A stretch of DNA of 64,000 nt from Candidatus Nomurabacteria bacterium (GTDB lineage Bacteria > Patescibacteriota > Minisyncoccia > Phycocordibacterales > UBA9973), in NCBI GenBank assembly GCA_052035405.1, contig JBPOHQ010000007.1, positions 12,292-76,291 on the forward strand. Direction: 5' to 3'. The first letter of the stretch is position 1, and each line of letters starts with the position of its first letter. A program made the position numbers and the translations under genes. A model generated the notes under the pieces. That model was not told where the DNA came from. It did not search any database and saw nothing but the letters and a program-made list of their open reading frames with translations. Below are positions 13,784 through 56,239 of this stretch, piece after piece.

Positions 13784-14655
13784 CCTTTCTTTTTTAATGG
13801 CAACTCAACAAAAAAAGTAGTTCCTCTGTTTACACCTTTGGATTTAGCGTAAATACGTCCCTTATGTCTTGCAATGACTTGTTTTGATAAGTATAGTTTC
13901 AACCCCATTCCGTCAGGATTCATAAGTACGGCTCTTTTGTTTCTATAAAATTTTGAGAAAATACGCATCTTATCTACTAAACCAAGTCCCATACCTGTAT
14001 CACCCACAAACAAAGTGATTGTATTTCCTTTCAGGATTGAATCAACTCCTACTTCACCATTTTTTGGTGTATAAAATATAGCATTTTCAACTAAGGCGTC
14101 TATAACAAATGTTATCTTTTTTATATCCAAAGTTAAGAGTGGAATATCTTTAAATGTAGATACTTGAAATTTAAGATTCTTTTTATTTATTTCCTCTCTG
14201 TATTTAACTATTGATTTTTCAACTACATCTCTTATCGAGATAGCTTCAAAGAAATAACTAGAGGTATTATTCAGATTTTTTATTCCAGCCACTAAATCTA
14301 CTATTTCAAGCACTTTGTTTGTTGCATTTGTTGTATTTTGGAGGTAAAGCATTTTCTCGCTCTGGGGCATATCTCTCTCGAGTTCTTTTAAGAGCCACAT
14401 TATTCTGGTCAAGGGGGTTCTGAATGTGTGGTTTACTATAGAAGTAAATTCATATTCTATATTTTTCACCTTAAGGTTTAGATAGATAAAGCTTATGCCT
14501 ATAACTATGACACTGATGAGGCATATGAGTGGTATTAAATAGATAGGTAGTCCATAAATTATGGAAAACGATTCATACTTATATAATAAATAAAATATAC
14601 CCAAAAGGTATGCAAAGAAAAATAAACCCTTGAGTAATTGACCAATTTTTTTCAT
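13780..14655 (-). CDS. Membrane sensor histidine kinase (HisKA + HATPase_c), orphan
   Basis: H-box HTFRTPLTRIMWLLKEL; G-box GDTGMGLG; N-terminal transmembrane helices. Confidence 0.75.
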   Translation of the reverse strand: MKKIGQLLKGLFFFAYLLGIFYLLYKYESFSIIYGLPIYLIPLICLISVIVIGISFIYLNLKVKNIEYEFTSIVNHTFRTPLTRIMWLLKELERDMPQSEKMLYLQNTTNATNKVLEIVDLVAGIKNLNNTSSYFFEAISIRDVVEKSIVKYREEINKKNLKFQVSTFKDIPLLTLDIKKITFVIDALVENAIFYTPKNGEVGVDSILKGNTITLFVGDTGMGLGLVDKMRIFSKFYRNKRAVLMNPDGMGLKLYLSKQVIARHKGRIYAKSKGVNRGTTFFVELPLKKKG

Positions 14656-14727
14656 GTTTGTATTATACTCTTTTTTGAAAAACTGAGAAAGTGTTTAAGT
14701 TATTATTTTGATATAATTAAGTTGTAT

Positions 14728-15819: not shown

Positions 15820-15877
15820 AGAAGGTTCTTGTGTAGAATCTTCTTAAGAGTATAATATGAGTAACTATTATATATAG

Positions 15878-17230: not shown

Positions 17231-17235
17231 AAAAT

Positions 17236-21060: not shown

Positions 21061-22368
21061 TTATTTTAACTCTTTTAAGTGTTCGAGGAGTTTGCTTAGT
21101 TTAACTGTGTTTTGGGACCTATTAGACATATCTCTTACTATGACAGTGTTGTCTATTGCTTCTTTTGCACCAAAGATGAGTGCATAAGGAACTGCTAATT
21201 TTTCAGCTATAGCGAGTTGAGCACCAAGAGAATCTTTTGAGAGGGATTGAGCTATTGGTATGTGTGCTTTACGGAGAATCTCTATCACATTGAGACTTTT
21301 AAGTTTGGCTTCACTTCCTAATTGGATAAAGTATATCTTTGGTTTTTTCATGATTCGTGGAGCAAGTTTTTTGTACCAAGGAGAAGCGACAATACGGTCT
21401 ACGCCGATTGCCATCCCTACTGCTGGAACATCTTTCTTTCCACCGACTTGTTTTGCGAGATAGTCATAGCGTCCACCTCCGGCAATTGATAGAGGTGTAC
21501 CATCTTCACCACCTTTTTCTTCTATAACTTCAAATACTGTACGAGTATAGTAAGCGAGTCCTCGAACGAGATTTTTATTAATATTGTACTGGATACCCAT
21601 TTCTTCTAAGTATTCCAACACCTCCTTAAAGTGTTTCTTGCAAGATGGGCATAGGAAACTAATAGAGTCTGGTGCTCCTTCGTTGATTTCTTTTGTTTTC
21701 TCTTCTTTTGAATCAAGAATTCTAAGAGGATTTGTCTTTAATCTTTCTTTGTCTATCGCGGGGAGGGCAGAGAGATTCTTTTTATAGTAGTTTGTTAGTT
21801 CTTTGAGGTATCCGTTACGGCATTCTTTGTCCCCAATTGAATTTATATCAATAGAAAGATTCTCTGCACCAGCTTCTTCGAGAATACTCATACCTGCCTT
21901 TATTACAAGTGCGTCCATGATACTTTTATCACTACCTAATGCATCTAGGTCAAATTGATAAAATTGTCGGTAACGTCCGCGTTGAGGTTTATCATGTCTA
22001 AAAGATGGGCCGTATTGATAGAACAACACTGGTTGAGGGAGAGATTGCATCCCGTGTTCTATGTATGCACGCATTAAAGATCCAGTGTGTTCAGGTCGGA
22101 GTGCAAGCACATCGCCACCTTTTGTCTTTAGAATATACATTTCTTTATCTACTATATCTGTACCATCTCCTACACCACGAGAAAAAACTTCTTCGTGTTC
22201 CATCATTGGGGTCTCGATAGGTTTAAATCCGTAGTACACAGCGACTTCTTGAGCTTTCTCAAAGAAACCTTGGAAACTGTAGTATTCTTCATTTTTTATA
22301 TCACGCATTCCTTTTGGAGATGCGACTTCTCTCGCTTTATTTTCTTTTTTAGGTGTTGTTTTACTCAT
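21061..22368 (-). CDS. hisS: Histidyl-tRNA synthetase (native copy)
   Basis: Class II motif 2 FRHDKPQRGRYRQFYQ; C-terminal anticodon-binding domain. Confidence 0.9.
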   Translation of the reverse strand: MSKTTPKKENKAREVASPKGMRDIKNEEYYSFQGFFEKAQEVAVYYGFKPIETPMMEHEEVFSRGVGDGTDIVDKEMYILKTKGGDVLALRPEHTGSLMRAYIEHGMQSLPQPVLFYQYGPSFRHDKPQRGRYRQFYQFDLDALGSDKSIMDALVIKAGMSILEEAGAENLSIDINSIGDKECRNGYLKELTNYYKKNLSALPAIDKERLKTNPLRILDSKEEKTKEINEGAPDSISFLCPSCKKHFKEVLEYLEEMGIQYNINKNLVRGLAYYTRTVFEVIEEKGGEDGTPLSIAGGGRYDYLAKQVGGKKDVPAVGMAIGVDRIVASPWYKKLAPRIMKKPKIYFIQLGSEAKLKSLNVIEILRKAHIPIAQSLSKDSLGAQLAIAEKLAVPYALIFGAKEAIDNTVIVRDMSNRSQNTVKLSKLLEHLKELK

Positions 22369-32579: not shown

Positions 32580-34031
32580 ATGTTGAAAAGATATTTTGTA
32601 TTTGTGTTTAGTTTTGCCTCCTTATTATCTTTTAATTTTGTTGGTGCGAGTGTGGTTATAAATGAAGTTCAAATATCTCCGACAGGAGATAGATTTATTG
32701 AACTCTTTAATCAAGACGATACAGAGGTAAATCTAACTGATTGGTATATTCAAAGGAAGACGCAAACAGGCACGAGTTTTAGCTCGCTTGTATCCAGTAC
32801 AAATTTTGAAAACAAAAAAATCAAAGGGCATGAATACTTTTTAATTTCTAGAAGCTTACTCAATAATTCAGATATCGTAGTGAGCACCATGACACTCACT
32901 GATTCCAATGTGATTCAGCTTAAAAATCAAAGCGGTGATATCGTTGACAAGCTCTGTTGGGGAGATGTGACTGATTGTGGAACGGTTGTCGCAAACCCTA
33001 CTGAAGGGAAAAGTGTCGCTCGAGGTACAGGTGGAGTGGTTATAGGAACACCGACACCTAAAGCAGCGAATAGTACTTCAGTCGGTGCTTCGGAACAGCA
33101 ACCAAATGAAGGAGCTCAGACCGATACATCTACTGGAACTACTACATCAGGATCAGGTTCTTCTATAAGTAAAACTGTAGAAGGAAAAATAATTACAAAA
33201 GTTGCAGTTAAAAGTATCGCGTTTGCGGGACTGCAAACGTCATTTCAGGCAAGTACCTTAGGCAAGGATGGATTACCGCTTTTTTATGGTAGATACTACT
33301 GGAATTTTGGTGATGGTACCTCACAAGAGACAAAAGTAAGTGATGGCGGGATGGTATCGCATACGTATTTTTATCCTGGTGAATACACGGTAATTCTAGA
33401 ATATTACATAAATAGTTATGGAGAAATTCCAGATGCAACAGACACAGTAAATCTAAAAGTAACAAGCGTAGAAGTTTTTATTTCAAGTATAGGGGACCAG
33501 AAAGATTTTTATATTGAACTTTCAAACAACACTGGGAACGACATTGATATTTCAAAATGGATCCTCGTCTCGGGAGAAAAAAGATTCTCATTTCCAAAAA
33601 ATACTTATATAGGAGCAAAAAAGAAAACCACATTTTCTCCCGCAGTAACTGGTTTTACTTTCTCTGACAAAAATAATCTAAAGTTAGTAAATCAAGATTG
33701 GAAAACTATTTTTGATTACGGCTCTACTGTGAGACCTATTCAAGTTGTATTACCGATAACTTATTCTTCAAGTAAAAAAGTAGCTCAAAAAGAAAATAGT
33801 TCTTCGTATACAATCACATTAGGAGAAAAAGAAGAAGACATAGAAAAAGATACGTTGTTGAATGCTCTTGTTGCACGTGGTGTTCAAAATAATACACCAA
33901 AGACTGGTACGTACCTGTATATTATTTTCTTTATTATTTTAATTTCTCTTGCGGGTTTTCTGGTATATATTCTTCGTAGAAGAAAATTTGGGACCAAAGA
34001 AGGTGACGACTTTGACATTTTAGATGAATAA
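32580..34031 (+). CDS. Surface protein with two lamin-tail domains (LTD) and a PKD domain, C-terminal transmembrane anchor
   Basis: VVINEVQISPTGDRFIELFN (LTD); YYWNFGDGTSQE...HTYFYPGEYTV (PKD, ~33290-33410); C-terminal LYIIFFIILISLAGFLVYILRRRK. Confidence 0.65.
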   Translation: MLKRYFVFVFSFASLLSFNFVGASVVINEVQISPTGDRFIELFNQDDTEVNLTDWYIQRKTQTGTSFSSLVSSTNFENKKIKGHEYFLISRSLLNNSDIVVSTMTLTDSNVIQLKNQSGDIVDKLCWGDVTDCGTVVANPTEGKSVARGTGGVVIGTPTPKAANSTSVGASEQQPNEGAQTDTSTGTTTSGSGSSISKTVEGKIITKVAVKSIAFAGLQTSFQASTLGKDGLPLFYGRYYWNFGDGTSQETKVSDGGMVSHTYFYPGEYTVILEYYINSYGEIPDATDTVNLKVTSVEVFISSIGDQKDFYIELSNNTGNDIDISKWILVSGEKRFSFPKNTYIGAKKKTTFSPAVTGFTFSDKNNLKLVNQDWKTIFDYGSTVRPIQVVLPITYSSSKKVAQKENSSSYTITLGEKEEDIEKDTLLNALVARGVQNNTPKTGTYLYIIFFIILISLAGFLVYILRRRKFGTKEGDDFDILDE

Positions 34032-34382: not shown

Positions 34383-37300
34383 ATGGTAATAAATAAAAAA
34401 CAAAAAGGAAAAAGTAAATCCGTAAGGGCAATTTTGTTGATTGCTCTTTTCTCCTTTGTGTTTGTTTTAAACTCTATTTTCTATACTTTGTCTTTTGCAG
34501 CAGCAGGGGTTCCTCTTATAATAAATTTTCAAGGAAGACTCTTGAACTCTAGTGGTAACCTTTTGGGTGGAGCGTCCGGTACAAACTACTGTTATAAATT
34601 TTCTATTTACGATGCTGCGTCCGGTGGGTCTAAAATATGGCCAGCGGGTAGTCCTTCGACTATGACAATACTCACTCGTGAAGGAGTGTTCGATGCACCA
34701 GTCGGAGACGTTAGTGCAGGAGGGGATGCACTAACTTTAGCTTTCACTGATGACCAAGCTTTTATGAATGTCGAAGTATCTGCTATTGGAGCTGGAAGCT
34801 GTACTTCAGGAGATGAAAGTTTTGAGACTCTTACTCCACGTCAACAAATTGTTTCTTCTGCTTTTGCTATAAATTCAAAAACTGTTGGGGGATTCACTCC
34901 AGCACAATCTGCAACCGGTAGTCAGATACCAGTTCTCACTTCTGGGTCGCTCGTACTCGGAGATACAAATCCAGGGATTAAAGTTATAGGATCTAATACT
35001 CTCACTTTACAAAGTGGTGTTACTGGAGACATTCAGTTTTATAGTTCATCAAATAAAATTACTTCATCTGGTGATTTAACGATAGCAGGACTTGCAACTA
35101 CTGTCGGACTTACTTCTACTGGTAATGTTTCTATTACTTCTTCCAACACAACTCAAAATACCACATCATCTGCTCTTGCTGTGAACTTAAATTCACTTAC
35201 TTCCGGTACCGGAATATACGCAGCTTCTTCCTCTTTGACTTCCGGTTCACTGATGAATTTATCAATTACAGGTACAGGAGCACAAACAGGACAAAAGGGT
35301 TTAAATATTTCTCTGCAGGGTGCCAATGCTGTAGCAGGTCGAACCACTTATGGAGCGTATATTTCAAATGCTCATACAGGAACTTCGGTAAATATTAGTA
35401 CGTACTCTACGGCTAGTGGTGGTGCATTCAATGTGGGAGGGTATTTTGATTCTGCCGGTTCTGGAGCAACTAATACAGGTATTTATGCTTCAGCTTCAGG
35501 TGGTACAAATAATTACGCAGCTATTTTTGAAAATGGGAACGTGGGTATTGGAACTACTGCACCAACAAAAGCTCTGAGCATAGAAGGTGCGATGAATTTC
35601 TTAACATCCGGTGTTTCTCGTGGAATTGTTGGTCCGCCTACGTGGGACACTTCTTATGTAGCTATTCAAAATGGAACCTTAGCAGAAAGTACCTCTAATA
35701 CGGCTTTAGCTCAAAATGTATCTGGTGATACTATACTAAATGCCGCTACTGGTAGAACGCTTTACTTAAGGATAGGTAATGCTTCTTCTATGACATTGCT
35801 ATCTGGTGGTAATGTTGGTGTAGGGACAACAGCTCCAGATAAAGCTTTAGAAATCAATTCATCCACGGGTGCGAATTTACGTTTGACTTACAATGACTCA
35901 AATGGTTCTGCTACGAACTATGCAGATTTGCAAACTACAAGTGCTGGATATCTCACCGTAATTCCAAGTGGTGGACAGACAGATATAGGCACTAGAGCTG
36001 GAAGTGACGTGACGTACGGAACCTTAAATGTTTTTACCCCAGATGGAGCAACTAGGGGAATAAAGATAACTACAGGTGCAACATCTATTACTCAATCTCC
36101 GTTTAGCATCTATGATTCAGCCGGTTCTCTAAAAGCATCTATTGATACTTCATGGCGATGGAATTCTGTTGCAGGATTCGTTGCTCCAACTTTCTATACA
36201 GATACATGGCAGCCTTATACGGGTTCTGTTGACTTTAATATTAACCCACCTTCCACAAAAAATGTTAATTTAAATGTTGCAGGTGGAGGTCAGGTAGTAG
36301 TAACAGGTGGTATGAAAATTGGAACAACAACAGCTGCCTCTACCATTGTTGCAGCAAACACCACAGGTGGATCAAGTAATCCAGGAATTATTTTTGATAC
36401 AGCAGGGAATTACTGGGCAAACAGTCAACAGATATATTCTTTCCGAGAAAATGGAACAGAATTTTTCTCTATTGATGGTATCGGAAATATAAAAGCTCCA
36501 GCAGGAAATTTTACAACTTCAAGCACTACCCCAGAATCCGGAACCGACTCTTTCATTGGTCATGGTATGCGTCGTGCAAATACTGCTGCTGGATTTAATT
36601 TCGCATGGGGCGAATCAATAGTGTCGACCACTGAGCCAGGAATAGACTTATTCCCGATAGGTAGTAGTCATATAACAAATGGAATTCTTTTTAGATTATC
36701 TAAAGACAGTGCACGCACTGACGTGGCTTTACAAATAAATGGAGATGGAGGCATAGGGGTAAACACTACTCCGACTTCAGATTATTTATTTAATATAAAT
36801 GGTAATACTACAAATGATAACAGTAGAATATTAAATATAACTCAAGCAAACAATTCAGATGAAGACAGTAGTTCTATATATATAACAGCCACCCCAACAT
36901 TAGGATCAATAGCAGCTGAGCGCACTGTGAGAGGATCTTATCTGAGTTTGACTCCAAGCTTAACCATTGCTGGGGGTGGTATTTCTGGTAATGTTTTTGG
37001 TGCAGAAACTGCTATAGATTTATCTTCTGTTACTTTAGGAAATACAACGGGTGGTATAAATTCTGTGAATTATGGTAGCAGTGTGAACATTACAGGTACT
37101 CCAGTACTTAATGACACTCTTGCTGGTGATGACACTTTTCTAAGTGTATACGGTGCCTCTACAAATGTTCAAGTTTCTCCTACGTTAACAAATATTGGAA
37201 ATGCTGAGTTTCTAAGTTATGGAGCTTCTTTTAATAATGCTTCTAGTTCGCTTGGGAATGCAAATTTGTTAAGTCAAGCAACCGGTATTTATGTTTCTTC

Positions 37301-40300
37301 TGCCGGAGCCTTAACAACAACTGGAACGACATCACATTATGGTGCACAAATTACTGCAGGGGGTACTGCAGATACAAATTATGGATTATATGTTAGTAGT
37401 TCTGGAGCCACTACAAATTATGCTGCGATATTTGCATTAGGCAATGTAGGTATAGGTGATGTGGACCCGGCATCACTCTTTACAGTAGGTGCAGGGGATT
37501 TATTCCAAGTAAATAGTAGTGGTGCCATAGCTGCAGCGACAGGAGTTACTTCATCTGGTACCATTACATTCTCTGGACTTGGAGGAGGTGGATCACAGTG
37601 TGTTCTTACAGACAACTCAGGAATACTTTCTGCTGGTAGTTGTGGAGGTGGAGGAGCAACTTTGGACAGTGCTTATACAGCAGGTAATACAATAGGTACA
37701 GACAGTGGTAATAATGTAATTATAAACTTAGCCGAGGTGGCAACTCCGACAGAGTTTGTGATAAATAATCTAGATACAGCTGGAGTCAATGCAGTGCAGA
37801 TAGACAATGGTATAGCTTCAGGAACACTGACAAATGGACTTTTGTTAGAGCAGTCTGGTGCAGGCACTATGACTTCCGCTATTCAGATAACTGAGACAAC
37901 AGGCACTATCACAAATGGTATTTCTGTTACTGGAACTCTTACAAATATTTTAAATACCCCTACTCTTGATATTACAGGAGCAGGAGCGATAACAGGAGTG
38001 ACTGGTATATCAGGAGGTGATGTAGTAATAGATTTTAATGATTTTGTTGTAGACGTAGAAGGTTTTACTGTTATTGCACCAGACGCTACGGGAGATGCAT
38101 TGAGTATTATCTTTGGTGCAGCTACTGATTTGCAAGCAATTGTGATAGATGCTGCAACAAATGCGTCTACTCAGACAGAAGGGTTAATACAAATAACTTC
38201 AGATACTTCTACTGACACAGCTATTGCTGGAGTAGGACTCACTTTAGTGGCTGTTGATGATGATGCTGCAGATATACTTTATGGTCACCGTACAGATATA
38301 ACAATCCAAGAAGATACTACAGACAAGGATACAGTATATGGAAACTACGTAGGATTTACTCAAAATGATCCAAACTCAACAGGGTATGGATTTGCTGTTA
38401 TAGCAGAAGATGCTGGTACTTCACCTCTTGCTGTAGGTCTGCTTATTCAAAATCTCCAAGCCACTGATATAGACATAACAGATGGTATTTTGATACAAGC
38501 TACTACAAATGATTCTATTTTAGATGCTATAGATGTATCAGATGCAGAGATCACGAACGCTATAAACATAGGCACGAATTTACTTGTAGCATCTGGAGAC
38601 TCTATCAATGACTTCACTGGCAATGGCTTAGTTGTATCTTCAAATGCTCTTACTGTAGACACCACTCTTGGAGCTGATGGGCTTTCTGCTACGACTTCAT
38701 CTGGTTCAGGACTTGAAACATTGGCGACAGGAGTAGCATTACTCCAAGGTTGTGCACATGATGAAGTTTTGAAATGGAACGAAACTTCAGACGTTTGGGC
38801 TTGTGGGAAAGACAATGATTTAATTACTTTGTCTTGGGCTGAAACAAATTTGACTGCTTCACAAACTGCTCTACAAATGGACAGACCAAACGCTACTAAC
38901 TTAAACACAACTACCTCTGAGGCATACATGCCTTATGCTGGAAGTATCGTTGGTATAGAAGTCGGAGGTAGTGCTGCTCGTACTGCTGGTACTGCTACTT
39001 TTGAAGTATATAAAAATGGTGCTGCTACAGGATTAACTGCTGTTATAAATGGAACAAATACTCAATACGTAAGAACTACTCAAGTTCCAGGGACTGATAC
39101 TTTTGCAGCAGGAGATTATATAGATGTGAGAGAGACTACTACAGGAACCTTTGCTCCTACTACTTCTGAATACGTAGCTACTGTGTGGCTAGAGATAAAC
39201 GAAGGAGCTGACTTAGCAGAGTTATACAATATAGAAGATGTCAGTATTGAGTCAGGTGATGTTGTTGCAATACACCCATTCCTTGAAAATGGCATAATGA
39301 AAAGTAATAAAGCGTATCAGAAAGAAATTTATGGAGTAATTGCAACCAGACCGGGGGTTATTTTAGGTCAAAAAGAAATAGGAGACATAAGCATGTCTCG
39401 TGCGGTTGCTCTAGCTGGACGTGTGCCAGTCAAGGTAACTAATTCAAATGGTGTTATTAAAAAAGGTGATTATCTTACAAGTTCAGACATACCAGGAGTT
39501 GCAATGAAATTGACTAAAAATGGTATGTCTATTGGTATTGCCATGGAAGATTTTTATGGAGATGATGTTGGTAAAATAAATATGTATGTTAAAAATGGAG
39601 TAGTAAATGGTGATACAGAAAGTGTATTAGAAAATTTAGAAGGTTTGTCAGGAATAGAAACAAATAAAATAACCCTAAAGGGGCTGAATAGTATAGAACT
39701 AACATCAGAAAGTATAAGTGCACTTTCTAGTGCGATAGATTCTCTCAAATTTGAGAATTCAAAACAAGCAGATGATGTAATTATGCTTAATAACAAGAAC
39801 GAATCATTTGAAAATAAAATAATAAATATAGAGTCTGCTATGAGTTTAGGCATGTTTGAAAATAAAAATAATCTTAATTTAGAAACGTTAGTGGTGGGAG
39901 GGGAGGTACAGTTTAATGGACTAACATTCTTTAACTCAAGTACGGTGTTTAATCGAAATGTTACATTTGGTAATGTTGTAGAATTTACAACTCCACCACT
40001 TTTCAACAAAGACACAGCCGGTTTTGCGGTAATAAAAGCAGGAAGTAAAAAAGTGGAAGTAGTTTTCGAAAATCCGTATATAGCTCAGCCTGTAGTGAAT
40101 GCGTCTATTTCTTTAGAGGATTCAGTTAATCCCGCTACAGAGACTACCCCAGAAGTAGTGAATACTATGACAGACGAACAAGTTGAAGAATTTTTTAGCC
40201 AAAATATAGAGTACTTGATTACAAATAAAACTGAGAAAGGTTTTGTAATTAGAATAAATAAAGTAATTACAGAAGACGTACTATTCTCATGGTCAGCTTT

Positions 40301-40640
40301 TGCCGTAAAAGATCCAAAGATTTTTGAAAGTGTGTTGCCAGGACTTGTAATCGAGCAAGTTATTGAAGAAAATGAACCTACTCCTTCAAAGGTCATTCCA
40401 ACTCAAAACTCAACACCAGATGAAGCAATAATAGAAGAAACATCAGTATCCGAAGAAACAAATGAGACTATCGGTGCTCCAGAAGTTTTTGATACAGCAG
40501 AAACACCAGAACCTTCAACAGTTACAGATACACAAGAAAATCTAAATGCACAGGTGACAGAAGTTCCTGCAGTGTCTACTTTCAAAGAGACAAGAGCAGT
40601 AGAAATGAGTAATGCACCAGAGACTTTGATTGCGGAGTAG
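34383..40640 (+). CDS. Giant (2085-aa) membrane-anchored tail-fibre-like surface protein with an internal peptidase-S74 intramolecular-chaperone (IMC) domain
   Basis: N-terminal transmembrane helix; recurring [14 protein letters not shown](S/E)I motifs (fibre-type repeats); IMC domain [23 protein letters not shown]...[12 protein letters not shown] at 39201-39600; a further ~340 aa follow. Confidence 0.8.
39201..39600 (+). other. Peptidase S74 / 'chaperone of endosialidase' intramolecular-chaperone domain (internal)
   Basis: DLAELY...GDVVAIH...[13 protein letters not shown]...GRVPVKV pattern. Confidence 0.65.
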
Positions 40641-40682: not shown

Positions 40683-41096
40683 ATGTTAAGAAAAAAATCA
40701 TTTAGAATTCTGTTGTTATTAGTTACTTTAGGAGCGATAGGCCTTGCAGGGTATTTTTATTATGAACTCAATAATCTTAAAAATAATCCTCAATCAATAA
40801 CTAAGAAAGAGGTTTCAGACCTTGTGGATAAAGTTTCTCGATTAGTTTTGTTACCCGAGAAAGAGATACCCACAGTAGCCACTGTGTCAGATTTAGAAAA
40901 ACTCAAAGATCAAAAGTTTTTTGCTAAAGCTCAAAAAGGAGACAAGGTACTCATCTATGCAGAAGCAAAGAAAGCATATTTATATTCTGTAACAAAAGAC
41001 AGAGTTATAGATATTGCACCCCTCAATTTAGGAAACAAAAAAGAATCAAATACAGAAATACAAAATAGTAATGACAGTAGTCTTATTATAGAGTAG
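40683..41096 (+). CDS. Small membrane-anchored protein, paralogue 1
   Basis: N-terminal transmembrane helix; PTVATVSDLEKLKDQKFFAKAQKGDKVLIY closely matches the next ORF. Confidence 0.5.
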   Translation: MLRKKSFRILLLLVTLGAIGLAGYFYYELNNLKNNPQSITKKEVSDLVDKVSRLVLLPEKEIPTVATVSDLEKLKDQKFFAKAQKGDKVLIYAEAKKAYLYSVTKDRVIDIAPLNLGNKKESNTEIQNSNDSSLIIE

Positions 41097-41130: not shown

Positions 41131-41547
41131 ATGGGCTACATGGCATACTTAAATTTTTATCTAAAAAAGAGAAATATTCATATGTTTGTTTTTTTGATAC
41201 TTTTAGTATTGGGTATTTTCTTTTTCAAAAATAAATTAAGTCTCGTTGGTCAGAGCACAGATAACAAGACAGTAAGTGAAAGTAAAATGTTAGCAAGAAA
41301 GGTGGGCAAGATAATGTTTGTGCCGAAGGATGAAGACCCTACCATAGCTACAGTTACAAATCCAGAAAACTTAAGAGGACAATCTTTTTTTGTGGATGCA
41401 AAAGTGGGTGATAAAGTTTTAATCTATAAAAATGCGAAAAAAGCTATTTTATATGATCCAATAGCTGATAAGATTATCACTATTGCACCACTTATCCTAG
41501 GTGAGCAAGATTCTACCGGATTAAATACTCCTGTATTTAAGTATTAA
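41131..41547 (+). CDS. Small membrane-anchored protein, paralogue 2
   Basis: PTIATVTNPENLRGQSFFVDAKVGDKVLIY; same architecture as 40683-41096. Confidence 0.5.
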   Translation: MGYMAYLNFYLKKRNIHMFVFLILLVLGIFFFKNKLSLVGQSTDNKTVSESKMLARKVGKIMFVPKDEDPTIATVTNPENLRGQSFFVDAKVGDKVLIYKNAKKAILYDPIADKIITIAPLILGEQDSTGLNTPVFKY

Positions 41548-41563: not shown

Positions 41564-42586
41564 ATGAGAAATATTTTTAAAATTAAAAAATTAAACATTT
41601 TAAAGACGACCCTATATTTCTTTTATATTTCTTTTATATTTCTTTATTTTTTTTCTAATGGTCATGCTGTTGATTTAACTAGTACTAATTTTATCGTTCG
41701 AGATCCAATTATAGGTACTGGTGGAGACTATGGTACTTCTAGTAGCTTTAAATTATATTCAGCAGGTAACACCCTTCTCTCTGGTGTAGGTTCTTCCGCT
41801 ACCTATATAGGACATTATGGTTTTTTATACTATCCTTTTATAACTTTAGGTACTTTGTCTGCTGTAGCTTCTGGGGCTGATGCAAACCTTTCTTGGCCAG
41901 TATCTGCTGCAGGTCAAGGCTGGACAGTATCCGGATATAATACTGGTAAAGCTGCAGTTTCTGGCGGGCCATATACATATACTTCAGTAGGTAACGTAAC
42001 AAGCTATTCATATACTGGACTGACTCCAGGAAATTATTGTTTTGTTTTGCAGACATTGGATGGTCTCGGAAATGTAATTGGTACTTCAAATGAGTCTTGT
42101 ATAACCATACGTCCTACCCTTACTTTTTCGATACCTACTACAAGTGTAAATTTTGGTACCCTTTCATCTACTGGTCCAAGATATGCAAATGCAACGACGG
42201 GTAGTGCTACTGATGTGGTTGCTCACACTATGCAGGCTAGTAGTAATGCTTCTTCAGGATACGTCATTACCTACAAAGGTCCTACATTAACTTTCGGTAC
42301 ACATACGATAAATGTTGCTTCTAGTGTTTCTGGAGATGGTTCGGCGGGCACAGAACAATTTGGTATGTCTTTGTCTACCACCGGGTCAGCTACCATACCA
42401 GCAGCATATCAACAATCAGGACCAACTAGAACTTTCGTAGACAACACTACTACGAGCATAGCTAGCACCTCAGGGATTACTTCGACAGAGACATTTAGCA
42501 ATCATTACTTAGCAAACATTTCACCTGTTACAGAAGCAGGACCCTACTCTACCACAATAACTTTCATTGCCACAGGAACTTATTAG
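41564..42586 (+). CDS. Secreted Thr/Ser/Gly-rich beta-rich protein (adhesin/fibre-subunit-like), C-terminus ...TITFIATGTY
   Basis: Signal peptide; shared C-terminal motif with the next ORF. Confidence 0.45.
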   Translation: MRNIFKIKKLNILKTTLYFFYISFIFLYFFSNGHAVDLTSTNFIVRDPIIGTGGDYGTSSSFKLYSAGNTLLSGVGSSATYIGHYGFLYYPFITLGTLSAVASGADANLSWPVSAAGQGWTVSGYNTGKAAVSGGPYTYTSVGNVTSYSYTGLTPGNYCFVLQTLDGLGNVIGTSNESCITIRPTLTFSIPTTSVNFGTLSSTGPRYANATTGSATDVVAHTMQASSNASSGYVITYKGPTLTFGTHTINVASSVSGDGSAGTEQFGMSLSTTGSATIPAAYQQSGPTRTFVDNTTTSIASTSGITSTETFSNHYLANISPVTEAGPYSTTITFIATGTY

Positions 42587-42647
42587 TTATCCACATTAAA
42601 AATAATGGTGCAGTTAGTTATTTATTGGTATAATCTAATTAATTTTT

Positions 42648-43892
42648 GTGCAAGTCGCACAATTTTATTGTTTAATAAAATTATTATCAGTTAGTATTAA
42701 AAATATGAAAATTTTAAAAAAAATTACCAGTTTATCACTTATTATGATGTTAATGGTACTAACATCAGGTGTTGTTAATGTTAATAAAGCTTTAGCCGCT
42801 TCTATGACGGCTTCCAAAGATACAGCTACAAGACTAAAAATAAGTACCACAGCTGATCATACTATAGTGACTACTCTCCCTACTGGTGTTGATTTTGATT
42901 CTACGGGTAATACTGATATGTTGCGTTTTGATTTTGCTTCTACCTTCAGTACTTCAGGTACATGGGTCACAGGAGACTTCACATTTAACGATGGTACAGC
43001 TAGAACGGTTCAAGCTGTTGCACAAGGTGCGGGTACCGTAGATTGTACAGTGTCAGCTGGTGTGAACAATGTCTGTGTGGCTATAGACACTACCGGTTTT
43101 GCTTTTTATGTAAAACCTTCTGCTACGTACACAGCATCAGCAACTGCTGCAACTATAACATTTACTATTGATGGAACTACTACTGATGGAACTTTAACAA
43201 ACCCTGCTTCAGCAGGTTCAGCAGCTCTTGATCTTGCAGCTTGCGATGAAGTAGCTTCATGTACAACTTCATTTACTTCTTCTCATACAGCAGCCACCGC
43301 TCTTGGAATTGCAGATGATGATCAGGTTACCGTGACTGCCACAGTGAATTCTTCCCTTACTTTTGACTTAGATGCTAACACTTCTGGAACTGGAGACACG
43401 GTAGCCCCATATACTGTGGCTTTAGGTACTATTACTACTGTAGATACTCGTGTGTCTGGTGCAACAGATTCAGTAAACAGAATAATGATGGATCTAGATA
43501 CTAACGCTGCTTCTGGTGTGGTTGTAACTGTAAAAGATGCAAACGGCACAAACGGTCTTGTCTCTACTTCTGTACCGGCTGATAATATAAACAGTGCTGA
43601 CGGTACTATGGCTGATGGAACAGAAAATTATGGACTTTGCGTTATTTCCGTAACTCAAACCCTTGGTACACTTTCAAAAGCATCTCCATATAACTCAGGA
43701 ACATGTGCTGCTGATTCAGAAACAAATGATATACAGGCTTTAACGACTTCAGGAGAGAACATCGTAAGTTCAGCTGCTCCTATATCAGGTGGACGAGCAC
43801 AAATAGCGGTAAATGCTGCTATAAGTGGTATTACACCTGCTCACTCTGACTATACAGATACCCTAACCTTTATTGCAACTAGTACTTTTTAA
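42648..43892 (+). CDS. Secreted Thr/Ser/Ala-rich protein, paralogous C-terminus ...TLTFIATSTF (probable start at ATG 42706)
   Basis: Signal peptide MKILKKITSLSLIMMLMVL; composition and C-terminal motif like 41564-42586. Confidence 0.45.
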   Translation: MQVAQFYCLIKLLSVSIKNMKILKKITSLSLIMMLMVLTSGVVNVNKALAASMTASKDTATRLKISTTADHTIVTTLPTGVDFDSTGNTDMLRFDFASTFSTSGTWVTGDFTFNDGTARTVQAVAQGAGTVDCTVSAGVNNVCVAIDTTGFAFYVKPSATYTASATAATITFTIDGTTTDGTLTNPASAGSAALDLAACDEVASCTTSFTSSHTAATALGIADDDQVTVTATVNSSLTFDLDANTSGTGDTVAPYTVALGTITTVDTRVSGATDSVNRIMMDLDTNAASGVVVTVKDANGTNGLVSTSVPADNINSADGTMADGTENYGLCVISVTQTLGTLSKASPYNSGTCAADSETNDIQALTTSGENIVSSAAPISGGRAQIAVNAAISGITPAHSDYTDTLTFIATSTF

Positions 43893-43905
43893 ATTTTAAT
43901 CGACT

Positions 43906-44931
43906 TTGATTATAATGAAAAATTATTTAAGTGACAGAAAAATTTCGCTAATAACTTCTCTATTTTTTGCACTATTTATTTTATTCAGTGCTAACCAGGT
44001 GTTTGCTCTTAGCTTATCTCCTGTTAGATTTGAGTTACAAGGTGATCCCGGACAATCTGTATCAGGAGAAATAATCTTAACTAACGAAACTGACTACCCT
44101 CAGACTTTCTATTCTTCTTTCTCAAACTTTGAAGCTCAAGGTGAGTCAGGTAACCCTGCTTTTGTTGTTCCTAAAAATGATTTAGGTACATGGATATCTA
44201 CTTCAGATATTGTTAATCTAGAACCACATGTTACTAAAAATGTTCCGTTCACTATAGATATACCAAAAGATGCTGAGCCAGGAGGTCATTTTGCTGTTAT
44301 CTTTTTTGGAGATACACCCGTAAATAATACTGGTGGTGGTGCAGTATCAGTTGGATCACAAACCGGTGCACTTGTCTTACTTTCTGTTAGTGGAGATGTA
44401 AAACAAGCAGGAGGAATGACAGCTTTCAACTTAAAGAACAATAAGCATTTTTATAATACTTTACCAGTAGATTTTGAATACAAATTTAAAAACGATGGAG
44501 GTGACCGCATTAAACCAGATGGTTTAATTACAGTTAGAAATATAATTTTTTATCCAAAAGTTAAGTTAGATGCTAACCCAAGTGAAGGGAATATACTTCC
44601 TGGAAGTACTCGAAAGTTTGAGATTAGTTGGATAAATTATTCTAGACCAAAAGACTTTACTCCTTCTTCAAATGTTTTTACTAGATATATAGAAATGGTT
44701 AAATATCAATGGCAAAATTTTGCTTTTGGTCCTTACTTTGCAAAAATACATCTTTCTTATGCTGGTTTAAATTTTGGTGACGGTAGTACCTTGTTTTTCT
44801 TTGTATTCCCTTGGCAACTTCTTATATTGATAGCTTTTGTATTAGGTGGATTGTATGTAATTGGAAAGAAAGTTCTCATACGTTACAATGCCCACATTAT
44901 AGAAAAAGCTAAACAAAATATGAAGTTGTAA
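43906..44931 (+). CDS. Cell-surface protein with C-terminal transmembrane anchor, DUF916/DUF3324 (CscA-like) architecture (tentative)
   Basis: Signal peptide; LSLSPVRFEL...PKDAEPGGHFAVIFF; C-terminal helix LLILIAFVLGGLYVIG + KK. Confidence 0.4.
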   Translation: MIIMKNYLSDRKISLITSLFFALFILFSANQVFALSLSPVRFELQGDPGQSVSGEIILTNETDYPQTFYSSFSNFEAQGESGNPAFVVPKNDLGTWISTSDIVNLEPHVTKNVPFTIDIPKDAEPGGHFAVIFFGDTPVNNTGGGAVSVGSQTGALVLLSVSGDVKQAGGMTAFNLKNNKHFYNTLPVDFEYKFKNDGGDRIKPDGLITVRNIIFYPKVKLDANPSEGNILPGSTRKFEISWINYSRPKDFTPSSNVFTRYIEMVKYQWQNFAFGPYFAKIHLSYAGLNFGDGSTLFFFVFPWQLLILIAFVLGGLYVIGKKVLIRYNAHIIEKAKQNMKL

Positions 44932-44942
44932 ACTTTTCTTTA

Positions 44943-45851
44943 ATGAAACATATAATATTCAAAAAGACAATTATTGGTGTTTCGCTATTTTTCTTTTTAA
45001 TTTTTTCTATTTATTCGTATACTTTTGCTTTTGATATAACTTTTAGCGAAGATGTGAGTGTAACAGCACAAGTAGGTTCTATCATTACTTCTCCTAGTGG
45101 AGGGTCTGGATCCGGTTCGGATAATCCTATAATGTTGCCAGAGACAAGTGTGCTCTTTTCTGGTATAGCTTACCCAAATGCCATAGTTACTTTACTTAAA
45201 GATGGAGTAGAAAAAACTAAAGTAACGGCAAACAAAGATGCTTATTTTTCAATAACATTGTTCGAAGAGTATGAGAATAATGCTCTATATACTCTTTTTG
45301 CAAAAGATATAGAAGGCGGGCGTTCATTACTGTTAAATTATCCAATTGTAATTCATACTGGGTACACAACTTATGTTAATGGTATATTGTTTCCCCCTAC
45401 TATAAGTACAGACAAATTAGAAGTTGCATTAGGTGATTATCTGTCCGTGTTCGGATATGCTGCACCAGAAGAAGATATGAAGATTTTTTTTGAAGGACCT
45501 CAAAAAAAATCTTTTGCTTTAAAATCAAATAAATTAGGAAAGTATGCACTTACACTACCTTTATCTGGTTTAGTAAAAGGAGATTATGTTGTTTATGTAA
45601 AATATGAAGCACACACTAGAGTTAGTAAATTGATTAGATTCGTAATTGGAGAAAAGAATGTTCTAAATACAAAAGAAATTACTGATATACCAGGGGATTG
45701 TAACGCAGATAGAGCCATAAATCTTACAGATCTTTCTATCTTATCTTTTTGGTATAAAAGATTAAATCCACCTAAGTGTGTAGACGTAAACGCAGATAAA
45801 TTGATAGATTTAGTAGACTTCTCTATAGTAGCTTTTTATTGGACAGGATAA
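44943..45851 (+). CDS. Dockerin-containing surface protein (N-terminal anchor/signal, C-terminal type-I dockerin pair)
   Basis: DCNADRAINLTDLSIL and DVNADKLIDLVDFSIV give two D-x-N-x-D-x-x-I-(N/D)-x-x-D calcium-binding repeats (45685-45848). Confidence 0.6.
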   Translation: MKHIIFKKTIIGVSLFFFLIFSIYSYTFAFDITFSEDVSVTAQVGSIITSPSGGSGSGSDNPIMLPETSVLFSGIAYPNAIVTLLKDGVEKTKVTANKDAYFSITLFEEYENNALYTLFAKDIEGGRSLLLNYPIVIHTGYTTYVNGILFPPTISTDKLEVALGDYLSVFGYAAPEEDMKIFFEGPQKKSFALKSNKLGKYALTLPLSGLVKGDYVVYVKYEAHTRVSKLIRFVIGEKNVLNTKEITDIPGDCNADRAINLTDLSILSFWYKRLNPPKCVDVNADKLIDLVDFSIVAFYWTG

Positions 45852-45857
45852 TTACAT

Positions 45858-46727
45858 ATGATCAAAAAAATTATTTTATTTTTAGTTATACTGTTTTCTT
45901 TTTCTACAAATGCACATGCTGCATCTCTTTTTTTGGATTCACCAACAGATATTAAAAAAGACCAAATTTTTGAAGCTAATATAAAGTTAGACTCTATGGG
46001 AGAAGTGGTAAACTCTTTTTCTATTAGTTTAGCGTACCCAGTAGAATTGCTTACCTTCAATGGATATAAGGAGGATTCTACTGTGATAAAGATGTTTATA
46101 GAGAAGCCAAAGGTTGTTAATGGTAAAATTTCTTTTAGTGGTATTATTCCCGGTGGTATTTCTGGATTTTACGATCCCAATAAAAAAGATGTAAACACAC
46201 TACCAGTTATAACATTACTTTTTAAACCAAGGAATGCTGGTGAAGGAGTCTTCTCTTTTACAGACATACAAATACTTAAAAATGATGGTTTGGGTACTAG
46301 CTTGTCTACCCAAAGTTCTGATAAAAATATAAAGGTAAATTCTGTAGAAGAATCTATAAAAGAAGAAAAGGACAGCATAAAGCCTCTTCCTTTTAATATA
46401 CAGTTAATAGAAGCATCTAGCCTGTCAAATACTCCACTCATGCTGTATTTTAATACAAGGGATTTAGATTCTGGAATAAAAAATTATCAAATAAAAATTA
46501 ATAATACTGTTTGGATGAACGCAGAGAGTCCTTATGTCATCTCAAGAGGATTTTTTGCAAAAAACTTCACAGTTAGGGCTTTTGATCATGCTGGTAACTA
46601 CGAAGACGCTCATCTTCGTTTGGAGGGTAAATCGTTTGATTTTATTACCCTAATTATATTAGTATTAATCGTGTTTGTCTTATGTCTCTCTTATCTGTTA
46701 ATATGGAGAAATGGTAAATTCGATTAG
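45858..46727 (+). CDS. Cohesin-like domain protein, C-terminal transmembrane anchor
   Basis: Signal peptide; ~140-aa domain FSISLAYPVELLTF...LLFKPRNAGEGVFSFTDIQILKNDG fits the cohesin consensus; C-terminal transmembrane helix. Confidence 0.5.
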   Translation: MIKKIILFLVILFSFSTNAHAASLFLDSPTDIKKDQIFEANIKLDSMGEVVNSFSISLAYPVELLTFNGYKEDSTVIKMFIEKPKVVNGKISFSGIIPGGISGFYDPNKKDVNTLPVITLLFKPRNAGEGVFSFTDIQILKNDGLGTSLSTQSSDKNIKVNSVEESIKEEKDSIKPLPFNIQLIEASSLSNTPLMLYFNTRDLDSGIKNYQIKINNTVWMNAESPYVISRGFFAKNFTVRAFDHAGNYEDAHLRLEGKSFDFITLIILVLIVFVLCLSYLLIWRNGKFD

Positions 46728-47853
46728 AAATCTTAATATATTTATATTTATCGGAGTACTTTTGTTAAGTCCAAGTATTTCTTCTGCAGATAATTCTAGG
46801 TTGTTTTTTAGCAATCCTCCAAAACAAATAGAAGAAGGAGAGAGGGTTACTTTTGATATAAATATTGAATCCAAAACTCAATCCATAAATGCTATATCTG
46901 GTGTTGTATATTTTCCTTCTGAATTATTGCAAGTTGTATCTGTTTCTAAAGAAAAGAGTTTAATCAATTTTTGGACACATGAGCCAAAAGTTTTTAGAGA
47001 CAAAATATCTTTTGAAGGAGTCATTTTAAATCCTGGGTTTCAAGGGTCTAAGAGTAAAATTTTTAGTATTACCTTTGAAGCTAAAAATAAAGGTACAGCA
47101 AATCTAGGCTTTACTGAGGGTTCAGTCCTTGCAAATGATGGTATGGGTAGCAATGTTCTTACCTATCTAGATAGGGTGATTTTTAAAATAATAGGTGTAA
47201 CGTTAAAGCCTGATACCACTGTACCTCAGCTACCTAAAAAAGATTTAGCTGAAATACCTAAAATAAAAAAAATTGCAAAATTACCCATAATCACAGACTA
47301 TCCATCTTTTGTGAACTCAAAAGAAAAATTACATTTAGAAGGTGAAGGTGAACCAAATGCACTGACAAAAATCGTCTTTGAAGATGTGTCTGTAAAATCT
47401 ATTGGAGAGAGGTTTATGGAATTTGTGCAGACAGAAAAGAAAAAGTTAGACAGCGTATTGGTTAAAAATAATGAAGTTGGTAAATTTGATTACGTTAGTC
47501 CCTCTGATCTATTAGCTGGTGTTTATAACGCTACTCCCTTTTTAATAGAAGAAGAAACAAACACTGAAAAACCAGGTTTTGGTGTTCAACTTTTTGTGAA
47601 GGACAGTAAAATAGTTAATTACCTCATTGTAGCCATAAATGTACTTGGGTTACTTATTCCTATTGTTACATTATGTGTGATAGTATATTTCATACCATGG
47701 TATTCATGGAGAAAAATGAGGGTTCTGAAAAGGAAATTAGGATTAGAAGAAGAAAAAATAGAGCTTATAGGTATTGACTTAGAAAGACAGAGTAATCAAA
47801 GGGTGGACAGGAGTGTCTCTTTTAAAGAAGAAAATATATTAAAAAAAGAATAG
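46711..47853 (+). CDS. Cohesin-like domain protein 2, C-terminal transmembrane anchor (paralogue of 45858-46727)
   Basis: NAISGVVYFPSELLQV...ITFEAKNKGTANLGFTEGSVLANDG aligns with the preceding protein. Confidence 0.5.
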   Translation: MVNSIRNLNIFIFIGVLLLSPSISSADNSRLFFSNPPKQIEEGERVTFDINIESKTQSINAISGVVYFPSELLQVVSVSKEKSLINFWTHEPKVFRDKISFEGVILNPGFQGSKSKIFSITFEAKNKGTANLGFTEGSVLANDGMGSNVLTYLDRVIFKIIGVTLKPDTTVPQLPKKDLAEIPKIKKIAKLPIITDYPSFVNSKEKLHLEGEGEPNALTKIVFEDVSVKSIGERFMEFVQTEKKKLDSVLVKNNEVGKFDYVSPSDLLAGVYNATPFLIEEETNTEKPGFGVQLFVKDSKIVNYLIVAINVLGLLIPIVTLCVIVYFIPWYSWRKMRVLKRKLGLEEEKIELIGIDLERQSNQRVDRSVSFKEENILKKE

Positions 47854-47863
47854 TTGCATCTAA

Positions 47864-48715
47864 ATGAAAGATAAAATAATTTTAAAAATTATATATGTTT
47901 TTGCTTGTATCGGTTTTATTTTCGTATTGGTTTTTCTATTAATGCAATTTGGGTTACTTAATGTTCGTGGTTCTATTAAAGAGAGAAATCAATTTTTTGG
48001 ACAAGTAAAGAAAACAGACAATACAAACGGATGCTTGCATGCCCCAGAGACGCAAGATGAAGAAGTGCTGTGTGCTTGGGTTGATACCGCAGAATGGGAA
48101 GTGGTTCGCGAAGGTTTAAAAAAAGATGCATCTATAATACAAGACGTCTCGCAGAAAACTGGTGTGTCGGCTCGGATGATTGCCGCATCTGTTGTCCCTG
48201 AGCAGATAAGGTTCTTTACTTCTAATAGGGAAAGTTTTAAAAGATATTTTGAGCCTATGAAACTTTTAGGTTCAATGTCTCAGTTTTCTCTTGGTGTGTC
48301 TGGTATCAAACAAGAGACTGCGAATGATATAGAAAAATATGCAAATGACTCAACTTCACCGTTTTATCCTGGAGGAGGATTCGCAGAACTGCTTGTCTAT
48401 CCAAATGGTGTAAACCACGACACGGAACTTTACAATAGGCTTACTGATTCAAAAAACCACTATTATTCTTATCTTTATACTGCCATTTATTTAAAAGAGA
48501 TAGAAACACAATGGAAGAATGCTGGGTTTGAAGTAGGTGATAGGCCAGATGTTTTGGTTACACTCTTTAATCTTGGTTTTAAAGCATCCAATCCTAAACC
48601 AAATCCACAAGTTGCTGGGTCTCTAATCTATGTCGGAGGTAAAAATTATACTTTTGGAGTACTAGGTAGTTCATTCTATAATTTAAATGAACTTATAGAT
48701 ATATTTCCAAATTAA
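47864..48715 (+). CDS. Membrane-anchored hypothetical protein
   Basis: N-terminal transmembrane helix; no family recognised. Confidence 0.4.
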   Translation: MKDKIILKIIYVFACIGFIFVLVFLLMQFGLLNVRGSIKERNQFFGQVKKTDNTNGCLHAPETQDEEVLCAWVDTAEWEVVREGLKKDASIIQDVSQKTGVSARMIAASVVPEQIRFFTSNRESFKRYFEPMKLLGSMSQFSLGVSGIKQETANDIEKYANDSTSPFYPGGGFAELLVYPNGVNHDTELYNRLTDSKNHYYSYLYTAIYLKEIETQWKNAGFEVGDRPDVLVTLFNLGFKASNPKPNPQVAGSLIYVGGKNYTFGVLGSSFYNLNELIDIFPN

Positions 48716-54946: not shown

Positions 54947-56239
54947 ATGGGCAAACAGAAAGTACCCTCGGTTAAAGGCATGAATGACATTCTGCCTGAG
55001 AGGCTACGCAAAATGCAGTTTGTAGAGAATCTGCTACTGCAACTTAGCTACAACTATGGGTACTTGCAAGTTAAGACCCCATCAGTTGAGCATGCGGAGC
55101 TGTATACACGTACATCGGAATTTTCGGAAGAGAAGAGCTATCCGGTCATTGATCCGAAGGATCGTGGCCTAGTGCTCAAAAACGACCCGTGTGCACCTTT
55201 GGTTCGCTTGGCGATAGAAAACCTTGTAAACAGGCAACCAGCCCCTTATAAGCTGGTGGCTTGCGATAGTATCTTTCGCTCGACGAACCGCAGGCGTCGA
55301 GAGTTCCGGATGTTCAATTTGGCCTGCTTTGGCGTTCCTGGGTCTATGGCTGACGCCGAGATGCTACGACTTCTGGTCGATTTCTTTGAGGCTCGAGGGC
55401 TTGTGGGTTGCAAAATTACTTTCAACAACCTGCAGCTTTATACCTCCTTGCTTTCCAAAGAAGTTGATGATCCTGAAAAGGTTGGTTCCATATTGCATCA
55501 GATAAGATTTGCAACGGATTTGAAAGCTGTGAGAGAAATACTTACAACTTCACAAGTTTCTGAGCCAATTGGTTCGGTTATATTGCAACTCTGGTCTGGA
55601 ATACAAGGTACCGCTGAACTCATGAGGATCGCTGATTCTTTAGAATGCAATCCATTTACTGAGGCAGTTGTACATCTTGAAGCATTTGAAACAATGTTAC
55701 AAAGCCATGAATTGAATCTTGCGATATTGAATACTGCAAATCTTCACGGCACCGGCTTTTACTCGGGTCTTACGTACAAACTGATTGCACCTGGTGAAAA
55801 AGGTCGTGAAATTGCCGACGGTGGCAGATATGACGACATGTTCACTCAGCTTGGTGGAGTTGGTATGGGTGCTTGCGGAATTGGGTTAGGCATTGAGCGA
55901 CTGGTTGAAATACTAGAAAGCTATGGTTGCCAAACTCAGGAATCAACCACTTGCAAGAGTGTGTTTGTGATTAATGAATTGGACCGTGAATCTTTTGCAA
56001 AATGGTCCAAGACGATCCGCAAACTTCGACTTGAGGGTTTCAAGATTGAGGAAGATCTTTCCCAAAAGAAATTCCAAAAATCTTTTGCCAGAGCAAAGTT
56101 ACTTGGCTACGACCTTGTTTTGGTCATGAGACCTGCCGGTGACAGCATTACAGTACAAATTATCGATGCTAGCACTCTTTTAGTTAGAGAGTTAACAATT
56201 GATAACGAAGCTGAGCTTTATTCTCTTCTTCAAGGGTAA
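54947..56239 (+). CDS. Histidyl-tRNA-synthetase paralogue (HisRS-like, degenerate motif 2; HisZ-like or auxiliary aaRS), conspicuously GC-rich
   Basis: GMNDILPE...; motif 3 GGRYDDM...GIGLGIERL; C-terminal HGTP-anticodon-like domain; local GC (~45-50 % by eye) well above surroundings. Confidence 0.65.
   Translation: MGKQKVPSVKGMNDILPERLRKMQFVENLLLQLSYNYGYLQVKTPSVEHAELYTRTSEFSEEKSYPVIDPKDRGLVLKNDPCAPLVRLAIENLVNRQPAPYKLVACDSIFRSTNRRRREFRMFNLACFGVPGSMADAEMLRLLVDFFEARGLVGCKITFNNLQLYTSLLSKEVDDPEKVGSILHQIRFATDLKAVREILTTSQVSEPIGSVILQLWSGIQGTAELMRIADSLECNPFTEAVVHLEAFETMLQSHELNLAILNTANLHGTGFYSGLTYKLIAPGEKGREIADGGRYDDMFTQLGGVGMGACGIGLGIERLVEILESYGCQTQESTTCKSVFVINELDRESFAKWSKTIRKLRLEGFKIEEDLSQKKFQKSFARAKLLGYDLVLVMRPAGDSITVQIIDASTLLVRELTIDNEAELYSLLQG

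Follow-up and report, generated by a model that had tools for sequence, protein, structure and literature searches.

In a 64,000-nucleotide stretch of DNA from a Candidatus Nomurabacteria bacterium (hereafter the window; contig JBPOHQ010000007.1 of assembly GCA_052035405.1, positions 12,292 to 76,291), one gene encodes a giant protein of 2085 residues whose segment aa 1610-1740 is a homologue of Peptidase_G2, i.e. of the D4 domain of gp12 from phage phi29, an intramolecular chaperone (IMC). In viruses this module is terminal, in cellular proteins it is internal, and this is a rule, not an oddity. In the window protein it is followed by a linker, a domain resembling H-type lectins and an acidic tail (Table 1). 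With moderate confidence we favour the reading that the gene product is exported to the cell surface as a trimer resembling a tail fibre, that its C-terminal cassette guides folding and that its module cuts its own chain between A1609 and D1610.

The earlier note on this DNA, made from the sequence alone, had placed a phage-type IMC at 39201-39600 and assigned it to peptidase S74. A conserved module indeed lies there (39210-39602 in our delimitation), but it belongs to another family. Neither the Pfam scan of the whole protein nor one of the segment by itself at E<=10 gave a match to PF13884 (Peptidase_S74), the motif S-D-x-x-x-K is absent from the whole protein and S-x4-K from aa 1590-1640, and the module does not have the S74 chaperone fold. 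As the note itself had named the lack of an S74 match or of a conserved catalytic Ser/Lys as refuting, the S74 claim is refuted. Although related giants carry genuine S74 domains and the overall architecture resembles that of S74-bearing tail-fibre-like proteins, we regard an endosialidase-type S74 chaperone with a Ser-Lys dyad at this place as extremely improbable, as both sequence profile and fold indicate gp12 D4 instead.

A homologue search with aa ~1587-1780 returned 22 homologues, two of which carry a precomputed PF11962 (Peptidase_G2) annotation, and in individual scans 8 of 23 members matched PF11962 (best E 7.6e-9). Compared with the sequences of the PDB, the family profile matched phi29 gp12 (6qz9_A, E 7.3e-7; 3suc, E 8.8e-5), and hhalign aligned a cleaner module profile to the gp12 C-terminus with a probability of 94.5% (E 7.8e-8). 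A cassette-wide profile lost the gp12 match in the PDB, its best match being a spurious one to V-ATPase subunit E. Moreover, a virion structural protein of Pseudomonas phage PA5oct shares 42% identity (E 1e-16) with this segment of the window protein at its extreme C-terminus; the phage protein contains the sequence K-Y-A-D-L-A-E-R-Y and ends a few residues past the module. In an AlphaFold2 model of aa 1600-1995, calculated as a monomer on 27 trimmed relatives, the module consists of ten strands with predicted local distance difference test (pLDDT) values of 90-98. It has the tandem beta-tulip fold of D4, and Foldseek finds the pre-mature form of gp12 (3suc, E 5e-4) as the best PDB match of the model.

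The position of the module separates viral from cellular carriers. At IMG/VR viral loci no more than 1-5 residues separate its end from the stop codon in 80 of 80 cases, the lectin-like domain being present in none of the 80, and in phi29-like gp12 it reaches the stop as well. In contrast, 115-572 residues (median 349) follow the module in 105 giant relatives of the window protein. At 80 species-representative genome loci, collected in a scan with a 7-sequence alignment, the module is never terminal; more than 100 residues follow it in 78/80, the lectin-like domain lies downstream in 34/80, and 21/80 (among L084-L163) contain two modules. Thus, the claim that a phage-type IMC stands internally in a cellular protein holds, and holds family-wide, whereas the family named for it and the Ser-Lys chemistry do not. 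The ~340 residues noted earlier behind the module are likewise real (346 residues).

The family is large. An exhaustive profile search over 1.84 billion representatives yielded 31,668 clusters at E<=1e-3, a number that falls to 25,998 at E<=1e-10. All of the best 150 cluster representatives (P0143-P0292) have 2-3 tandem modules, the last of which is followed by 253 residues in the median, a list that is biased to multi-copy proteins because scores add up. Tandem modules are typically spaced by ~140 aa (e.g. aa 2161-2296 and 2360-2494 in P0131), and nearly all keep the motif D-x-A-E. Where a source is named, Patescibacteria predominate overwhelmingly (Paceibacteria, Nomura-, Saccharibacteria, Woese-, Gottesman-, Levyi-, Uhr-, Roizman-, Magasanikbacteria and others), and nearly all giant relatives are without any precomputed Pfam domain. 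A minority of metagenome-assembled genomes (MAGs) is labelled, as deposited, Gammaproteobacteria/Pseudomonadales, and one each Weeksellaceae and Thermotogae. The modules in these MAGs (L085, L086, L092, L100, L101, L111, L126 and others) are ~50% identical to that of the window protein; those labelled Gammaproteobacteria/Pseudomonadales include a 1.6-Mb 'chromosome' (OZ246394.1). The labels outside Patescibacteria could reflect mislabelled bins or real spread.

The predicted cleavage site A1609/D1610-L-A-E1613 (the slash marks the cut) aligns to S691/D692-F-A-E695 of phi29 gp12. The crystallised released C-terminal fragment of gp12 (3gqh_A) starts with D-F-A-E-Y-F-E-S, aligned to the D-x-A-E of the family, and the pre-mature form 3suc has Gln where gp12 has Glu (E695), which fits a cut at S691/D692 and a catalytic E695. 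The motif is under strong constraint. Asp, Ala and Glu are each invariant in 60/60 aligned giant relatives, and D-x-A-E is kept in 103 of 106 module instances of the 105 giant relatives, in 265 of 276 instances of the best 150 cluster representatives, in 87 of 96 instances at genomic loci and in 80 of 80 viral loci. Since Ala precedes Asp in 76/80 viral copies and Leu occupies position x in 66/80, the A-D-L-A-E of the window protein is the commonest viral form. Three giant relatives (P0024, P0049 and P0116) are devoid of the start of the module with its D-x-A-E and keep the remainder and the tail; they may be natural non-cleaving variants.

Another type of IMC occupies the same slot in some siblings. 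Four giant relatives without a G2-like module have true PF13884 matches, all internal (Table 1), and in P0090, P0101 and P0142 the S74 module precedes the lectin-like domain known from the window protein and then a tail rich in P/S/E. The Ser...Lys spacing is kept in these S74 copies. The S74 IMC, known from K1F endoNF and T5 pb1 of phages, has the same proposed job, i.e. to assist trimerisation from the C-terminus and then to remove itself by cleavage, but it is related to the G2-like module neither in sequence nor in fold, and the catalytic residues differ as well (Ser-Lys versus Asp/Glu). As two unrelated chaperones interchange at this place and both keep their catalytic residues, the function of the slot is probably that of an IMC, probably with cleavage, and we regard this interchange as the strongest indirect argument for it.

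In the part behind the module the earlier note had described a coiled-coil-like segment and then an acidic tail. A linker predicted to be helical and an acidic, E/T/P-rich end are found, and a beta domain lies between them. The linker, which varies from 3 to 327 aa across relatives, is possibly a coiled coil; AlphaFold2 places helices at residues 176-199 and 210-226 of the monomer model, where pLDDT is low. The beta domain (pLDDT 87-97) is the best-conserved part of the protein, with 55-60% identity in the top matches, and is found in 106 of 120 giant relatives. Pfam H_lectin (PF09458) is matched by 17/28 relatives (best 3.7e-5), with the window copy remaining sub-threshold at E 0.28, and the NCBI name of one relative is 'H-type lectin domain-containing protein'. 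The profile matches of the relatives and the model suggest an H-type-lectin-like domain, probably with a lectin fold. The last 95 residues (E 20%, T 16%, V 9%, P 9%) have a net charge of -19; the equivalent tail of relatives comprises 0-170 aa and is P/S/T/E-rich. Neither a hydrophobic anchor nor a sorting motif was seen in the acidic tail.

In the hydrophobic stretch at the N-terminus the earlier note had seen a membrane anchor, but the stretch rather resembles a Sec signal peptide of the cleavable kind. A basic n-region and ~20 hydrophobic residues precede the sequence S-F-A/A-A-G, and Kyte-Doolittle windows above 1.6 occur in the whole protein at aa 11-29 only. In 13 relatives a variable upstream sequence is followed by an A-x-A-type site and an abrupt onset of conservation at A-G-V-P. 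A cleavable signal peptide, as opposed to a stable anchor, is thus probable, a call that was made by sequence rules and not by a dedicated predictor. The region that follows is 45-83% identical in most of 44 aligned relatives and contains a predicted beta-sandwich domain (aa ~47-155, pLDDT 85-97), for which a comparison of the model with PDB folds gave no significant match (best E 0.15). The Gly/Thr/Ser-rich fibre body noted earlier is borne out by its composition, and the repeated fibre motifs could be located as three copies of GN[VI]G[IV]G at aa 385, 476 and 1020 (nt 35535, 35808 and 37440). The fibre body gave no Pfam match, and scans of the whole protein with Pfam, NCBIfam and PHROG returned nothing useful; weak matches to Fibritin_C, methionyl-aminopeptidase and hyaluronoglucosaminidase are regarded as chance. 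In the domain directly upstream of the module, the first ~38 aa, which contain a Cys-loop motif, recur in relatives, and the remainder matches P0023, a close relative described below, only.

Table 1. Features of the giant gene and its product, and S74 modules of four giant relatives (residues refer to the respective protein, positions to the window)
Feature	Residues	Position	Strand	Basis	Protein length (aa)
Probable cleavable Sec signal peptide	1-38	34383..34496	+	predicted cut S-F-A/A-A-G	
Conserved N-terminal region including a predicted beta-sandwich domain	39-240	34497..35102	+	alignment, AlphaFold2	
Variable Thr/Gly/Ser/Ala-rich fibre body	241-1439	35103..38699	+	composition, motifs	
Lineage-specific domain directly upstream of the module	1440-1609	38700..39209	+	comparison of relatives	
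Predicted autocleavage site A1609/D1610-L-A-E1613 (GCT GAC TTA GCA GAG)	1609-1613	39207..39221	+	gp12 alignment	
Peptidase_G2-type (phi29 gp12 D4-like) tandem beta-tulip IMC module	1610-1740	39210..39602	+	profile, fold	
Asn/Ser/Glu/Leu-rich linker, predicted helical	1741-1835	39603..39887	+	AlphaFold2	
Conserved H-type-lectin-like beta domain	1836-1990	39888..40352	+	conservation, AlphaFold2, profile	
Acidic Glu/Thr/Pro/Val-rich low-complexity tail, with stop codon	1991-2085	40353..40640	+	composition	
S74 module of P0090	1935-1990				2313
S74 module of P0101	1831-1882				2203
S74 module of P0141	980-1037				1197
S74 module of P0142	2504-2558				2864

The gene itself is intact, chromosomal and cellular. 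The open reading frame (ORF) 34383..40640 (+) comprises 2085 codons in a single unbroken frame up to a TAG, and the relative P0023 from an independent metagenome assembly is 98% identical and likewise exactly 2085 aa long. Since, in addition, module and tail lie within one ORF in more than 100 relatives, the suggestion that an undetected frameshift had joined a separate downstream ORF is ruled out; nothing in favour of such a fusion was found in these comparisons, and the probability that the 346-residue tail is a gene of its own is practically negligible. A phage or prophage tail fibre is a somewhat less remote but still very improbable identity. In its favour, the module is phage-like, as are the fibre motifs, and some virion proteins of phages are homologous. 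However, the upstream neighbours encode GAPDH, ribulose-phosphate epimerase (Rpe), a split transketolase (Tkt), a PfkB kinase and a protein with LTD and PKD domains, DNA polymerase III alpha and histidyl-tRNA synthetase (HisRS) are encoded farther away, and the order GAPDH, Rpe, Tkt, PfkB, LTD-PKD, giant recurs beside the relative P0025 in another genome. The ORFs downstream of the gene gave no Pfam match and no meaningful PHROG match, the protein bears a probable signal peptide, and it differs from the viral copies in its internal module and its lectin-like domain.

Based on these findings we propose the following course of events. After Sec export and removal of the signal peptide, the cassette of tandem beta-tulip module, helical linker and H-type-lectin domain would set three chains in register and, starting at the C-terminal end, nucleate the folding of the long beta-rich fibre. 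This would correspond to the role of D4 in phi29 gp12, where D4 acts as a chaperone and where its removal leads to non-productive assembly (bioRxiv 10.1101/216911; PMC3357383; PMC9863714). Once the trimer is formed, the module would hydrolyse the A1609-D1610 bond using Glu1613 and the Asp carboxylate, which would yield a fibre of ~158 kDa (aa 39-1609) and a C-terminal fragment of 476 aa (aa 1610-2085, 51.7 kDa). If cleavage occurs, aa 1440-1609 would become the C-terminal tip of the fibre, a placement that mirrors phage receptor-binding proteins with their variable tip just ahead of a conserved chaperone. Whether the fragment would leave is another matter. Xiang et al. are said to have found in 2009 that its release in phi29 is ATP-dependent, and such a release is unlikely to operate outside the cell. 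As ATP is unavailable there, a mixed outcome is plausible in which the chain is cut and the fragment nevertheless stays attached non-covalently.

Several points weigh against this course of events. Cleavage by a module of this type is known for phi29 gp12 only, where the module is terminal. The window protein itself has no direct PF11962 match, either as a whole or as the isolated segment, so that its link to PF11962 requires the family profile or the structure. No cell anchor of the giant protein was identified, no part is conserved better than the lectin domain, which would be unexpected in a piece that is discarded, and the many tandem D-x-A-E modules fit poorly to a disposable terminal pro-domain. 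If every copy cut, several pieces would result; otherwise D-x-A-E must have another role and could be structural. In the main rival reading the beta-tulip module would be a permanent, non-cleaving trimerisation knot kept in the mature fibre, with a structural D-x-A-E, and coiled coil and H-type-lectin trimer would form a working distal head that binds sugars of host cells. Three observations support a permanent knot: the decoration-protein relatives of the module are uncleaved, many proteins carry it in tandem, and conservation of the lectin is high. On the other hand, the Asp and Glu aligned to phi29 hardly ever vary, even where the module is internal or repeated in tandem, and the sibling S74 modules keep their catalytic Ser/Lys, which puts two unrelated proteolytic chemistries at one position. 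Moreover, a host-binding head should vary by lineage, yet this part is the most conserved and it is the domain upstream of the module that is lineage-specific. We therefore consider a permanent knot possible, but rather unlikely. It is quite doubtful that phage-derived self-cleaving modules, G2 or S74 interchangeably, have been repurposed as processing or break points in giant surface fibres of the Candidate Phyla Radiation (CPR). Equally doubtful is what cleavage after export would then bring about beyond the loss of a pro-domain, i.e. that it frees an H-type lectin trimer, either soluble or held loosely, or leaves a nicked fibre, joined non-covalently, whose lectin head could come off under load. 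SEA/GAIN-type autoproteolysis in eukaryotic adhesion proteins offers a parallel to such break points, and, if they exist, proteins with 2-3 modules would be cut into several defined trimeric pieces.

The proposed self-cleaving chaperone differs from its closest known counterpart in several respects. In phi29 gp12, D4 (MEROPS G2, PF11962) extends to the stop, whereas the module of the window protein is followed by the lectin domain and further residues. The window protein is cellular and predicted to be exported by Sec, so that a cytoplasmic ATP-dependent release is unlikely to apply, and its upstream body is no recognisable pectin-lyase-type beta-helix (no Pfam match), unlike that of gp12. The beta-tulip fold is also found in capsid decoration and cement proteins, e.g. 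the HFTV1 capsid stabilisation protein, Sf11 gp40, the base of phi29 gp8.5, and the TW1 and Pam3 cement proteins, but these are small, stand-alone, uncleaved capsid binders and are not known to carry a D-x-A-E motif at a boundary to a fibre. For aa 1836-1990 the H-type lectins (PF09458), such as Helix pomatia agglutinin, SLL-2 and the C-terminal domain of discoidin I, form the comparison set; a place behind a self-cleaving module is, to our knowledge, no feature of this group. A precedent for the architecture is the ICA domain of MYRF (myelin regulatory factor), an internal phage-type IMC with functional sequence after it, whose trimerisation-dependent self-cleavage separates the two halves of the protein (PMC5436001). 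In general, the MYRF module is classed as S74-type; a transmembrane anchor lies behind it, and a transcription factor is released on cleavage. The window protein, in contrast, has a G2-type module, no hydrophobic segment downstream of it and a predicted extracellular location.

Thus, the module type and its role as self-cleaving chaperone (phi29) as well as an internal cellular IMC (MYRF, S74-type) are already known, and Rossmann's group reportedly noted a homology of D4 to 'some bacterial adhesion proteins' (bioRxiv 10.1101/216911). In the literature on PF11962/Peptidase_G2 and on CPR in combination with lectin, IMC or tail fibre we found no earlier description of the present system. This concerns the split between terminal viral and internal cellular modules, the swap of G2 and S74, the patescibacterial cassette of module, linker, H-type lectin and acidic tail, the tandem copies and the size of the family.

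The surroundings of the gene contain further candidates for surface proteins. Just upstream, the LTD and PKD protein (32580-34031, +) has an apparent C-terminal hydrophobic segment, judged by eye, and holds the equivalent place at the syntenic locus of P0025 (L003, 6146-7561); it may be a partner of the fibre. Directly 3' of the giant gene follow two tandem paralogues (40683-41096 and 41131-41547, +) of 137 and 138 aa with a mutual identity of 40% (E 2e-26); both have a hydrophobic segment at the N-terminus and no Pfam or PHROG family. Then seven successive ORFs of 283-414 aa lie on the same strand (41564-48715, +); they gave no significant Pfam or PHROG match, only weak dockerin or Ig-like hints, and may belong, together with the giant gene, to a cluster encoding surface proteins. 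The 64-kb window holds no second copy of the G2-like module, and no DNA tandem repeats were found in the giant gene. Between 33900 and 41200, 11 hairpins resembling terminators were counted, several of them intragenic, versus 3.9 +/- 2.0 expected from shuffled sequence, an excess that is probably an effect of composition.

Elsewhere in the window, a second giant ORF (2271-10232, +; 2653 aa), unrelated to the fibre protein, contains SpvB, FG-GAP, RHS-repeat, bacterial surface Ig-like and Gly_rich_2 domains and a C-terminal Peptidase_M15_3 domain. By its domain content it looks like a polymorphic toxin of the Tc/RHS type that ends in a cell-wall peptidase, which would be notable for the small genome of an episymbiont. 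Two genes resemble that of histidyl-tRNA synthetase (21061-22368, -, and 54947-56239, +); the second matches the catalytic core only, with no match to the anticodon-binding domain, and may be HisZ-like or an otherwise diverged paralogue. A gene for mannose-1-phosphate guanylyltransferase is followed by two GH130 (beta-1,4-mannooligosaccharide phosphorylase) genes (together 14638-19167, +), the product of the second having 643 aa and two matched stretches, which suggests mannoside scavenging.

CPR bacteria, or Patescibacteria, live in attachment to other cells. Hardly any annotation exists for their giant surface proteins. As the module family is large and mostly missed by the current Pfam model, the annotation of many metagenomic proteins could be improved. 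For the protein of the window, the self-cleaving cassette predicts an exact processing site, A1609/D1610, and two products of 158 and 52 kDa. Taken together, the cassette model may explain how fibres of ~200 kDa fold outside the cell without a periplasm or external ATP.

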